From an uncultured Verrucomicrobiae bacterium (lineage in GTDB: Bacteria; Verrucomicrobiota; Verrucomicrobiia; Chthoniobacterales; JAFAMB01): a stretch of DNA of 64,000 nt. Below, piece by piece: positions 50,276-52,726 of this stretch. The notes below the pieces were generated by a model. It was given only the letters and a program-made list of their open reading frames with translations, did not search any database and was not told where the DNA came from. The position numbers were made by a program, and so were the translations under genes. Each line of letters starts with the position of its first letter. The first letter of the stretch is position 1. The DNA is taken from NCBI GenBank assembly GCA_963813025.1, contig CAWEXO010000014.1, forward strand, positions 384,001-448,000. Reading direction: 5' to 3'.

Positions 50276-50684
50276 ACATCCGGTTACGGATCGACCGGGC
50301 TGCTTGTGAGCGGTCCGAGATCCTTGAGCCAGTCACCTGGACAAACGCTCGGATTATCAGGTTTGCTCTCGCAAAATGCAAACGGTCGTTTTTGCTCAGC
50401 GGCAGTGCAGCTGATCAGCTGGGCAACAGATCAGTCAACTGGGCGGAGGGGGCGGCGGGAGCGACTTCAGCGGAGGGATGTAGCGCGAGAGCGCGCCGAA
50501 GCTTACAATTGTCTCATCCACGATCATTCGTTGACCCCGATGAGTCCGGGCCTCTTCCGACTTTGGGTAATTTGTAAGTACGCCATCAAGCGATTGGTCG
50601 CGCGAGGGCTAGAGATCGTCTCAGAATGCCCCACTGTCCTGCGCCGGTAGGGCAGTATCTGAGCAGGTCTGGCAAGGGAAAAAG

Positions 50685-51959
50685 TTAAAGTTTTTCACCG
50701 ATTGGTGAGTGGCGTTTTTTGAGGACTTGGAGGTAGCGCTCTTCGTCATAAGGGGTGCGGTCCTGCCAGAGCCGGAAGATGACGCGGATCCATTTAAAGG
50801 CCAAGGCGCGCACGGCAGTGTGGTGGGACTTACCGCGGGCCATTTGCTCTTGATAATAGAGCTTGGCCCATTGGGAATAAGGAATGGAATGAGCCGCGAA
50901 TTCGTGGAAGCTCTGGCACAGGAATTTGGAGCGAAAGCGCCGCCGCTGGACGCTTTTGGTTTGGCCGCTGCGCACTTGGACCGGAGCGATTCCGCTTTTT
51001 TTCTGTACCTCCAGGGCTTGGGCAAAAGCCTGCCGATTGGAGCCAAAAGCCACCAACAAGCGCGGGGCTAATTGCGGGCCGGCTCCGGGCAGACTTTCAA
51101 AAATGTGCCGATCGGGATGTTTGGCAAACAGAGTGTGGATGGCTTTGTCAAAAGCCTTGATGGAATCTCGCAGCGGCAACAATTGACTGACCAAACACTT
51201 GCAACTCAGCACGGAGGGCTCCAGCAGAGAACGATCCTCGGTGACGGTTTGGGCCCGAGCAATCTTTTCCAAGCGCTCCTCGATCAAGCTCTGGCTGCGG
51301 CTGTGGTGCTGATAAAAAAAAGAGCGCAGGGTCTGGGGCTTGGCTTTTTTTAAACTCTGCAGGGTCGGCCAGCGTTTCAAAAAATGCAGCGCCAGAGTGG
51401 TGCCCAAATCATCGAGGAGCTCGAGGGCCAGCGGATAGTAGACTTTGAGTAAGCTGGTGAGTTGGTTTTCGCACACCACGGAGGCCTCGACGGCTTTGCG
51501 TCGGTGCTGACCGAGCAAATCCAGTTCCCGCACTACCGGCTCCGGGGGTTGATAAAGCCGGAGCCGATCCCGATGGTGATCAACGAGCTCTTCGATCAAT
51601 TGGCTGTCGCGAGGGTCATCCTTGGCGCCACTAGTAAAGAAGACCTTGCGGTATTCGCTTAAACTCAAAGGATTGAGCGGATAGAGGTCGATCCAGTCTC
51701 CCTGGGTGCGGAGCATTTCAAAGAGTGCTCCCCGATTTTGTTCAAAACCAATGGCCACCCGCCCCTGCGGACCAGCCAAGCTTTTGAGCTCTTCGAGCCA
51801 GGTCCGAACCGAAACGGGATCGGCGCCCAGCTGGAATGTCCGGCATCCTCCCTCCGGACCAGAGCGTTGACAGACAGCGTGTTCTTTATCAGCCCAATCG
51901 ATTCCCACGCTGACCATATAATGGGGATCTGGGACCGGAAACGGATTTGATCGGTTCAT
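50685..51959 (-). CDS. IS110-family recombinase/transposase
   Basis: DEDD residues in VGIDWAD, GFEQ and KDDPRD; SGIAPVQVRSG; AAGGAG RBS. Confidence 0.95.
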   Translation of the reverse strand: MNRSNPFPVPDPHYMVSVGIDWADKEHAVCQRSGPEGGCRTFQLGADPVSVRTWLEELKSLAGPQGRVAIGFEQNRGALFEMLRTQGDWIDLYPLNPLSLSEYRKVFFTSGAKDDPRDSQLIEELVDHHRDRLRLYQPPEPVVRELDLLGQHRRKAVEASVVCENQLTSLLKVYYPLALELLDDLGTTLALHFLKRWPTLQSLKKAKPQTLRSFFYQHHSRSQSLIEERLEKIARAQTVTEDRSLLEPSVLSCKCLVSQLLPLRDSIKAFDKAIHTLFAKHPDRHIFESLPGAGPQLAPRLLVAFGSNRQAFAQALEVQKKSGIAPVQVRSGQTKSVQRRRFRSKFLCQSFHEFAAHSIPYSQWAKLYYQEQMARGKSHHTAVRALAFKWIRVIFRLWQDRTPYDEERYLQVLKKRHSPIGEKL

Positions 51960-51974
51960 GCTTGCTCCTTTTTT

Positions 51975-52325
51975 CTGGTTTTACCCAGCGCGAAAAAAGC
52001 CGCTTGGCTTTGGCCGTCCGAAATCCGTATAGTTAAGTCGTCGAAGTGTGAAGTGCTCGACCTCAACTAGAGTATTCGTTGTGACGAATCAAAGCGCGAC
52101 CGGCTGGCTCGAAACTCTGCCCTAAAGATCTCGCGGACCCGAAAATCCTATTCGTAGCCAGCCGGCGCGTCCTTCTTCGCGTGGGCAGCGCGGGATTTTG
52201 CCCGACTGCCCTTGGCAAAGAAAACCCTTTCTTTTTTCCAAAGCTTTCTTTTCTCCGGGCGGAGTTATTCACAAGCTGGAGCTCCGACCGGTAGGGCCTC
52301 CGACCACAGCTTGCTGAATAACTCC
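51975..52325 (-). ncRNA. Predicted bridge RNA (ends approximate)
   Basis: Target loop closed by stem 52100-52109/52156-52165 carries ATTTTCG and TAGGGC; donor loop carries ATACT and CTATAC. Confidence 0.8.
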
Positions 52326-52331
52326 GGACTT

Positions 52332-52337
52332 GCTATA
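52332..52337 (-). promoter_or_regulatory. -10 element of the predicted circle-junction promoter (-35 TTGCCA at 50675-50670)
   Basis: Joined ends read TTGCCA-17 nt-TATAGC. Confidence 0.7.
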
Positions 52338-52726
52338 CGAAAATTTATTCGAGCCCCAGGCGAGAACTTGTTTGAGCCATCTGGAGCGGGTGGCTCACCC
52401 AAGCGCCTGGCTCAAACAAGTTCTCGCTAAGGCTCGAATAAATTTTCGCCCTACCCGGCGCAGGACCAAAGACGCCTTGGGACATCCCTCGAACCTCTCT
52501 TCCGAACCATACCTCGATTGCGCGCGCTACAGATTACCCAAAGTCCGACACGCCCGCCCCGCCAAAGAATTCGAGTTGGGACGTCGTCATTTGTGGCATT
52601 TTTCGGTTTGTGGCATTTCTGCCTCGGCGCTCCTTGCGCTGGGGCGGAAATCTGTTTCGTTGCAAGCTGTTTCATGAACGAGACAGGATAGTTCGAAGGG
52701 GCACAGATGAGCTTCGATGTCCCCAT

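Follow-up and report, generated by a model that had tools for sequence, protein, structure and literature searches.

A 64-kb stretch of DNA from an uncultured Verrucomicrobiae bacterium, referred to here as the window, very probably contains a recently active insertion sequence of the IS110 group, in which a DEDD/serine bridge recombinase is combined with a bridge RNA encoded in the 380-nt left end. All coordinates refer to the window, and the element and its parts are read on the minus strand.

By analogy with IS621, we propose that the element excises as a circle in which its ends are joined as GATACT-G-TATAG, thereby creating a promoter. This junction promoter would transcribe an RNA of about 330 nt that comprises a 5' hairpin, a target loop, a donor loop and a weak terminator, and some of the transcripts might read through into the recombinase gene. 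In the target loop, guide AUUUUCG would recognize ATTTTCG on the bottom strand, and guide UAGGG would recognize the top-strand CCCTA. The circle junction would be read by the donor loop, with TATAG recognized via CUAUA and the right end via a left donor guide for which there are two candidate registers. The single shared G would be the point of strand exchange. Adjoining the right guides are bases that are complementary to position 8 of the other DNA (UAGGG-CA-G for donor C-T-G; CUAUA-CG for target C-G) and would therefore pair only after top-strand exchange, as do the handshake guides of IS621.

Insertion sites, host repeat and recombinase

The exact ends of the element, 50653..52338, are common to ten full copies in the genome. 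At the left junction the sequence reads aaATTTTCG/TATAGC, with the G at 52338, and at the right junction it reads cagATACTG/CCCTACC, with the G at 50653. An empty paralogous repeat on contig C13 reads ATTTTCG/CCCTACC without interruption and is identical to the sequences flanking the insertion over 68 bases on the left side and 55 on the right, beyond which the sequences are unrelated; it provides a precise empty-site reference and so defines the insertion point. A preliminary description of the window had given the target as ATTTTC-G-CCCTA, which the empty C13 site confirms, and every coordinate given there was found on the minus strand. The left end measures 379 nt and the right end extends 31 nt past the stop codon. 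Terminal inverted repeats are absent (the inverted repeat at the joined ends is limited to 4 bp, ATAC/GTAT), a single base, G, is common to the target and the joined ends, and 10/10 copies are inserted at the same sequence. A contig in sequencing run X1 skips exactly 1,685 bases between 50652 and 52338; we rejected it as a case of excision at this locus, since it may derive from the identical empty paralogue on C13.

A search of the element's own genome (16 contigs, 4.42 Mb, 80% complete by marker genes) returned 12 matches, namely 10 full-length copies with 98-100% identity, one 217-nt left-end fragment and one 23-nt flank match. The left junctions read TTTTCG/TATAGCAAG in 11/11 cases. CCCTA is present at 10/10 right junctions, which read GATACTG/CCCTACC in 9/10 copies and have A for G in the remaining one (L005). 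The open reading frame (ORF) is open in all ten copies, with 0-5 amino-acid differences, and five other copies differ from that in the window by 0-2 bases. Because ten near-identical copies sit at ten different sites, recent activity of the element is plausible, which goes some way toward the preliminary description's view that it is likely active.

Several copies carry distinguishing changes. L008, L009 and L010 have 22 substitutions in common, of which 19 fall close together within the ORF (element positions 916-1078), and this shared patch resembles recombination from a diverged relative. In L006 (C16:83661-85362), a one-base deletion in the right-end motif gives CTCGATACTG for CTCAGATACTG at an otherwise normal junction. 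A 13-bp tandem duplication of the element's first bases, in which TATAGCAAGTCCG occurs twice, is found at three different repeat sites, in L007 (C13:92669-94363), L010 (C11:76271-77965) and L011 (C1:207767-207986); apparently the variant with the lengthened left end itself transposed. L011 (C1, about 207770-208000) consists of a left end alone, a remnant of about 217 nt to which the 13-bp duplication is added; it stops within the target-binding loop, close to where the right target guide is encoded, with unrelated sequence beyond.

The target is a recurrent sequence of this genome. Unoccupied, the 12-mer ATTTTCGCCCTA occurs 136 times, compared with the roughly 0.5 occurrences that a random 12-mer would have in 4.4 Mb with both strands counted (our own arithmetic). 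Neighboring sites less than 400 bp apart form inverted pairs in 34/40 cases, mostly with a spacing of 107-117 bp, which identifies the sites as the two ends of a palindromic repeat of about 110-150 bp, and the empty 12-mers are located mostly at such repeat ends. In the repeat interrupted in the window, the target of the other arm, plus-strand ATTTTCGCCCTA at 52442-52453, is still intact and unoccupied; it lies about 100 bp from the insertion. The preliminary description had called the target a host repetitive extragenic palindrome (REP), an assignment borne out by the empty sites and their inverted pairing. The label is fair in a broad sense, the unit being longer than classical REPs.

The 424-residue recombinase matches PF01548, the N-terminal RuvC-like DEDD domain, over the entire profile (E 1.3e-20, residues 18-176), and PF02371, the C-terminal Tnp domain with the catalytic serine (E 1.1e-8). 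With 148.4 bits it passes the cut-off of 140 for NCBIfam NF033542, 'IS110 family RNA-guided transposase'. D21, E73, D115, D118 and S331 are invariant in 15 homologues, as is the pair S331-G332, whose counterpart in the alignment with the IS621 chain is the Ser-Gly of the ESG motif; the acidic residues were mapped onto IS621 D11/E60/D102/D105 by motif position, without direct alignment. Taken with the ten open reading frames, these matches and residues agree with the intact IS110 recombinase previously described. Against solved structures, phmmer matched the C-terminal domain alone, with ISCro4 (PDB 9t56) as the best hit at E 2e-6 and IS621 at E 8.7e-6; the enzyme is a distant relative of the studied bridge recombinases. 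Among 8,000 candidates scored, 7,736 proteins reached E <= 1e-20, the best non-self match being 72% identical, and 19 of 401 genomes sampled from the class, this genome included, had a match at E <= 1e-40. Judged by these searches, the clade is large yet patchy among genomes. One metagenome-assembled contig of Verrucomicrobiota carries a 69% relative (L015/L071/L077) whose recombinase is split (residues 1-303 and 291-424, with one internal TGA) and whose RNA region is intact.

Bridge RNA and target guides

The 379-nt upstream arm has a minimum free energy (MFE) fold of -152.5 kcal/mol, compared with -122.7 +/- 5.3 for 100 shuffles (z = -5.6). Relatives with 35-72% protein identity share its architecture: a hairpin of about 65 nt (GGAGTTATTCA...TGAATAACTCC) opens the left end, and there are two loops, each with an outer stem and a closing CGA/UCG inside ACGAAU...UUCG. 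Within each loop, a 5' guide segment is followed by a small hairpin and a 3' guide segment. The 5' hairpin is present in 13/13 subfamily members examined and in several relatives at 40-46% identity. In the window element, the loop of this hairpin (52287-52296, minus strand) contains GCCCTACCGG, which is identical to the shared G followed by the right target flank and is complementary to the right target guide. This target mimic was found in only 1/13 subfamily members and was set aside as probably due to chance.

Covariation in the stems was assessed in several ways. Based on a structure-blind MAFFT alignment of 19 sequences, RNAalifold predicted a target-loop stem of 15 pairs, 12 of which are compensatory. 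Applied to the donor loop alone it predicted 0 pairs, with MAFFT misaligning stems of variable length, and we replaced it by duplex folding and a covariance model. Per-sequence duplex folding found the donor-loop stem in each family member, and in 13/19 of them <=5/200 shuffles equal it. The covariance model, R1, was built from 19 sequences with a hand-set structure. It yielded 31 genuine matches and 1 spurious match from 47 sources among the genome loci, and 45 matches from 78 sources among metagenome loci outside model building. In the resulting alignments, 77.6% of cells are paired in the genome loci versus 53.0 +/- 1.1 after shuffling, with a covariation of 0.567 versus 0.164 (slid controls <=0.172); the corresponding values for the metagenome loci are 82.5% versus 61.9 +/- 0.9 and 0.429 versus 0.135 (slid controls <=0.108). 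In either set, 0/500 shuffles reach the observed pairing and covariation. The target-loop helix is paired at 91.0% in the genome loci and 90.5% in the metagenome loci and the donor-loop closing helix at 98.9% and 96.0%, respectively, and the inner donor hairpin is poorly aligned in both sets (about 48-50% paired). R1 found no match in relatives at a greater distance (identity of about 35% or below, e.g. L029-L031, L033, L046 and L049-L055), which presumably carry RNAs of another shape. An Rfam search returned no bridge-RNA family and only three sub-threshold chance matches. A regular-expression search for the loops produced false matches within coding regions and was dropped.

The target guides can be read against the junctions of the window element itself. 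The reverse complement of the right target guide and its handshake bases, CTGCCCTA, coincides with an uninterrupted 8-base stretch of the right junction, made up of donor C-T, the shared G and target CCCTA, and the TAGGGC previously noted at 52124-52119 was confirmed. The combination ATTTTCG-N(5-30)-TAGGGC occurs once in the 64-kb window, compared with 0.03 expected occurrences and a match in 3/100 shuffles, and chance does not account for the pattern.

Further evidence for guide function comes from relatives, whose flanks were compared with their own loops, as the preliminary description had suggested. Left ends were placed via the 3' donor-loop segment, and the 9 preceding bases were scored against the target loop's 5' segment; right flanks were placed after a conserved 11-nt motif, CTCAGnnnnnn. 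Copies within the relatives' own genomes were tried for an independent definition of the ends and were mostly single in those assemblies. For 18 elements, the left target matched the cognate guide at a mean of 6.78/9 positions and non-cognate guides at 4.16; for 48 distinct elements, the mean was 7.08/9 versus 4.26 +/- 0.18 after permutation. The right flank matched the cognate guide at 6.35/7 and non-cognate guides at 3.65 in 17 elements, with 5.49/7 versus 3.80 +/- 0.14 after permutation in 45 distinct elements. On both sides 0/2,000 permutations were as high; in these permutation tests, and in that of the left donor guides below, automatic right-end detection took some wrong motifs (e.g. 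L019, L020 and L089), adding noise. Together with the covarying stems, the guides that track their flanks support the two-loop RNA with IS621-like guide order and polarity that the preliminary description had proposed, along with a covariance-model check of the left end.

Relatives at 58-72% identity present a case of natural retargeting. Their right half-site is constant (CCCTACC), and their left half-site varies together with the guide. The left target guides of close relatives are GGUUUUCG or GGAGCCUC, each fitting its own flanks. Guide AGGUUUUCG occurs with flank AGGTTTTCG at 6 loci, guide CAGGUUUUCG with flank CAGGTTTTCG at 3 loci (probably one insertion seen in several samples), and guide GGAGCCUC with flank GGAGCCTC at 1 locus, with 2 more at 7/9; at one further close-relative locus, guide and flank match with one mismatch. 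Since the differing left guides of these close relatives match their own flanks, we infer that the system is reprogrammable, as the preliminary description had it. In one metagenome contig (L094), the left flank AGAGCCTCG fits the GGAGCCUC guide group and the target loop carries CAGGUUUUCG, so that guide and flank do not match; a chimeric assembly or an off-target insertion could account for this. L026 has a 10-nt exact match to the reverse complement of its own right target guide about 300 nt beyond its right end and about 1,950 nt after the RNA start, which may represent a second target-like site nearby.

The ends of the element also bear on its expression. In 17/17 right ends of relatives, TTGnnn lies 16-18 nt before the element end and is followed by CTCAG. 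In the window element, joining the ends would set TTGCCA 17 nt upstream of TATAGC, and a junction promoter would be rebuilt at the level of sequence, of the kind described across the joined ends of IS110 elements (PMC11208160). A promoter and terminator scan of the integrated copy called none on the minus strand, with no comparable -35 box; the junction promoter is invisible in linear DNA. Chromosomal IS621 loci are described as expressing their RNA weakly (PMC13626964). The putative weak terminator listed in Table 1, which was read from the sequence and missed by the consensus scan, shares AAAG with the 3' arm of the donor stem (CAAAG), and the two structures would compete. In this way, read-through into the recombinase gene could be tied to how the RNA folds.

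Table 1. Features of the IS110-group element and its insertion site (window coordinates)
Feature	Position	Strand	Details
Whole insertion sequence	50653..52338	minus	1,686 bp including the shared G at both junctions; 1,685 bp unique
Target site sequence			ATTTTCGCCCTACC
Interrupted host palindromic repeat	52339..52466	minus	continues at 50652-50636
Left target half ATTTTCG	52338..52344	minus	last G shared with element; same sense as left target guide
Right target half CCCTA, then CC	50648..50652	minus	reverse complement of right target guide
Left-end first hexamer TATAGC	52332..52337	minus	right donor half and candidate -10 box; promoter complete only once ends are joined
Right end	50653..50675	minus	TTGCCA 50675-50670 (candidate -35), 17-nt spacer, left donor half CTCAGATACTG 50663-50653
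Long 5' hairpin	52261..52325	minus	GGAGTTATTCAGC...GTGAATAACTCC; in MFE fold; start of presumed RNA
Target-binding loop	52100..52169	minus	outer stem 52165-52156 (ccggctggct) / 52109-52100 (agccagccgg)
Target-loop closing helix	CGA 52154-52152 / UCG 52112-52110	minus	conserved ACGAAU at 52155-52150
Left target guide AUUUUCG	52140..52146	minus	same sense as left target; matches left flank
Small hairpin between target guides	GGTC 52139-52136 / GATC 52130-52127	minus	4 bp
Right target guide and handshake bases	52117..52124	minus	UAGGGCAG, reverse complement CTGCCCTA
Donor-binding loop	52008..52094	minus	CUUUG 52094-52090 and CGUC 52086-52083 / GACG 52018-52015 and CAAAG 52012-52008
Inner parts of donor loop	ACGAAU 52079-52074; closing UCG 52021-52019	minus	inner hairpin 52061-52057/52044-52040
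Left donor guide region	52064..52075	minus	AUACU 52075-52071; family-register candidate CUCUAGUUG 52072-52064
Right donor guide and handshake bases	52025..52032	minus	CUAUACGG, reverse complement CCGTATAG
Weak terminator-like hairpin (putative)	51993..52011	minus	AAAGCC-aagc-GGCUUU, then U's
Recombinase gene	50685..51959	minus	424 aa; AAGGAG 51970-51965, ATG at 51959; ORF intact

Crossover position and donor guides

At positions 8-9, the target reads CG and the donor TG, so that a single base, G, is shared and there is no common CT core. In 10/10 copies and in L013-L015, all left junctions have C at position 8 and all right junctions have T, and close relatives have C at 14/14 left and T at 11/11 right junctions. 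L045 shows the same split (left CG, right TG), and L048 has CG on the left. Because the junctions are uniform, and not the mixtures expected from random resolution of a two-base heteroduplex, strand exchange seems to be confined to the shared G, in line with the one-base parse of the preliminary description. The left target guide carries CG, CTGCCCTA reads CTG-CCCTA (donor C7-T8, then G) and the right donor guide, when reverse-complemented, reads CCG-TATAG (target C8, then G); position 8 appears to behave as a handshake position. In IS621, cleavage is described as falling 3' of the 2-nt core in the top strands and at the opposite edge of the core in the bottom strands, and after cleavage the right guides pair with the incoming core and with positions 6-7 of the other DNA (PMC11208158). 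The handshake positions of the window element would lie one base closer to the crossover than their described analogues in IS621.

Alternatively, the crossover might comprise the usual two bases (8-9), the target C and donor T at position 8 forming a natural mismatch, and biased heteroduplex repair or segregation could have made the junctions uniform. Most other relatives do carry CT on both sides, as IS621 does, and cleavage in IS621 is described as flanking a 2-nt core (PMC11208158). Random resolution would nevertheless have mixed position 8, which is uniform in all copies and close relatives, and we regard a two-base crossover as unlikely. L005 (C4:2755-4466), with GATACT-A-CCCTACC at the right junction and a retained G at the left, and the three unoccupied ATTTTCACCCTA sites in the genome fit exchange at position 9 as well, or a later mutation. 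The A of this copy could reflect insertion into a variant site, which would be informative for strand crossing, or could have arisen by mutation after insertion.

Turning to the donor loop, CGTATAG forms an unbroken 7-base stretch of the left junction, running from target C through the shared G into donor TATAG, and agrees with the predicted right donor guide. TATAG or TATTG opens the left end in 18/18 relatives with upstream sequence. In 18/19 relatives, 7-9 nt at the start of the left end, 72-169 nt upstream of the loops, match the 3' donor-loop segment in reverse complement; the 19th is without upstream sequence. The preliminary description had assigned ATACT (52075-52071) and CTATAC (52032-52027) as donor guides. 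Both are present, but the role of the former as left guide is questionable. AUACU is a perfect 5-nt match to the ATACT of the right end that ends at position 8, as left guides do in several relatives. Its first two bases, however, fall within the ACGAAU that is family-invariant in both loops, and 11/11 close relatives listed have T/C-TACTG at the right end, so that the match shrinks to 4 nt (TACT). L016 and L020 carry AATACTC and are without ATACT in their right ends.

We lean slightly toward a reading with the same element and mechanism in which the left donor guide is CUCUAGUUG (52072-52064), pairing with the subterminal CTCAGATA (50663-50656). In relatives, the segment that follows the second ACGAAU is CTCAGnnn, identical to the start of the right-end 11-nt motif, and the bases after CTCAG change jointly in donor loop and right end (GGTG in L016 and L108, GGGC in L020, GCC in L045, AGG in L042, ATC in L106, and ATG in many). 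In two relatives the match reaches CTCAGATGTC, to position 8. L091 and L092 would pair CUC(U)AGUUG with CTCAGTTA through 7 Watson-Crick pairs and 1 wobble with one bulged U, and L085-type loci at 6 plus 2 wobbles with a bulge. The window element fits this register less well, with 4/8 matches ungapped or, allowing a bulge, 6 Watson-Crick pairs, 1 wobble and 1 mismatch. The register also leaves the last three bases of the right end unpaired, whereas the left donor guide of IS621 is described as reaching the core (PMC11208160).

Several points weigh against the overall interpretation of the element as an active, RNA-guided insertion sequence. The comparison of left donor guides with right ends gave 6.62 versus 6.37 after permutation over 11 nt (156/2,000 as high) and 5.90 versus 5.53 over the first 8 nt (9/2,000 as high), statistics that are weak because the donor ends are conserved; the window element and its two closest relatives score lowest, at 5/11. 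The right donor guide matches at 7/7 in 18/18 elements, but the left ends were located with the guide itself, which makes this test circular. Both R1 alignments were fitted to the model and are hence biased toward its structure. Identity of the 167-nt RNA region in 10/10 copies is not significant, given that the 22 substitutions of the three diverged copies are clustered in the ORF, and we dropped it as a statistic for RNA constraint, the 28 variable positions lying mostly in one shared ORF patch. The circle junction GATACTGTATAG has 0 matches in the genome assembly, no RNA run containing the sequence turned up among the sequencing runs, and transcription, RNA ends and promoter were all deduced from the sequence.

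It could also be argued that the loop matches are incidental and that only the protein, or only the hairpin shape of the repeat, determines the site. The target is situated at the end of a long palindrome, and for ISPpu10 a target stem-loop is described as adding to specificity (10.64898/2026.03.19.712850). In the present family, however, the guides covary with the flanks across 45-48 distinct elements, and close relatives that hardly differ in their protein and share the right half-site have left half-sites that differ and match their guides. Any contribution from the structure of the repeat would add to guide choice and not replace it, and we consider incidental matches highly improbable.

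Relation to known bridge recombinases

The element is a well-supported new example of a known RNA-guided recombination system. It introduces no new principle, because its protein is already recognized by the NCBI model for IS110 RNA-guided transposases and bridge RNAs have been predicted in most IS110 elements; Durrant et al. 2024 give a figure of 85.7% for the IS110 group and also note REP targeting (PMC11208160). The closest functional parallel is with IS621 from E. coli, as described in two reports (PMC11208160, PMC11208158). Both systems combine DEDD and serine recombinase domains with a guide RNA in a long left end, in which the target loop precedes the donor loop, and in both the left guides are in the sense of the left halves and the right guides are complementary to the right halves. 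Insertion into a repetitive palindromic element, a promoter sequence rebuilt over the joined ends and a handshake logic beside the right guides are further common features.

There are also clear differences. The recombinase described here has 424 aa, compared with 328 in the solved IS621 chain, and phmmer aligns the C-terminal domain only. The RNA arm is about 330 nt long and has an extra 65-nt 5' hairpin, while the RNA of IS621 measures 177 nt. Both loops are framed by ACGAAU...UUCG, and the left donor guide has no clear reach to the crossover. One shared base, G, takes the place of the CT core of IS621; a CT core identical in target and donor was not found in this element, and many relatives of the same RNA family have CT.

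Other members of the superfamily offer more limited comparisons. Engineered bridge recombinases of the ISCro4/IS622 type are described as the same kind of system (PDB 9t56; 10.1101/2025.05.14.653916) and are distant in sequence. ISPpu9 and ISPpu10 of Pseudomonas putida are, by their published descriptions, likewise multi-copy IS110-family elements that occupy one position of repeated palindromic intergenic sequences (PMC12288879, 10.64898/2026.03.19.712850), in a different host phylum and with different sequences. The IS1111 group, for which seekRNAs were described by Siddiquee et al. 2024 (PMC11187229), shares the transposase superfamily and RNA-guided site choice. IS1111 elements are described as carrying their RNA in a long right end and as having subterminal inverted repeats of 7-17 bp (PMC11208160), unlike the element in the window, whose RNA lies upstream of the gene. 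Its 31-nt right end, upstream RNA and inverted repeat of only 4 bp do not fit the IS1111 group.

With ten occupied and 136 empty sites in one genome, the element constitutes a clean natural case in which ends, target and guides are directly readable. Its close relatives, with a shared right half-site, three left half-sites and matching guides, illustrate retargeting via guide change. The one-base overlap and the handshake-like position 8 represent small departures from the rules of IS621 and may matter for bridge editors with a non-CT core. It is conceivable, although we remain doubtful, that the element belongs to a widespread and uncharacterized clade of bridge recombinases of about 420 aa, defined by single-base exchange, a handshake at position 8, an obligatory 5' hairpin, ACGAAU/UUCG-framed loops and a left donor guide that reads a subterminal block. 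If this were true, the design rules of the clade would differ from those of IS621, and its members could provide orthogonal, naturally retargeting editors.

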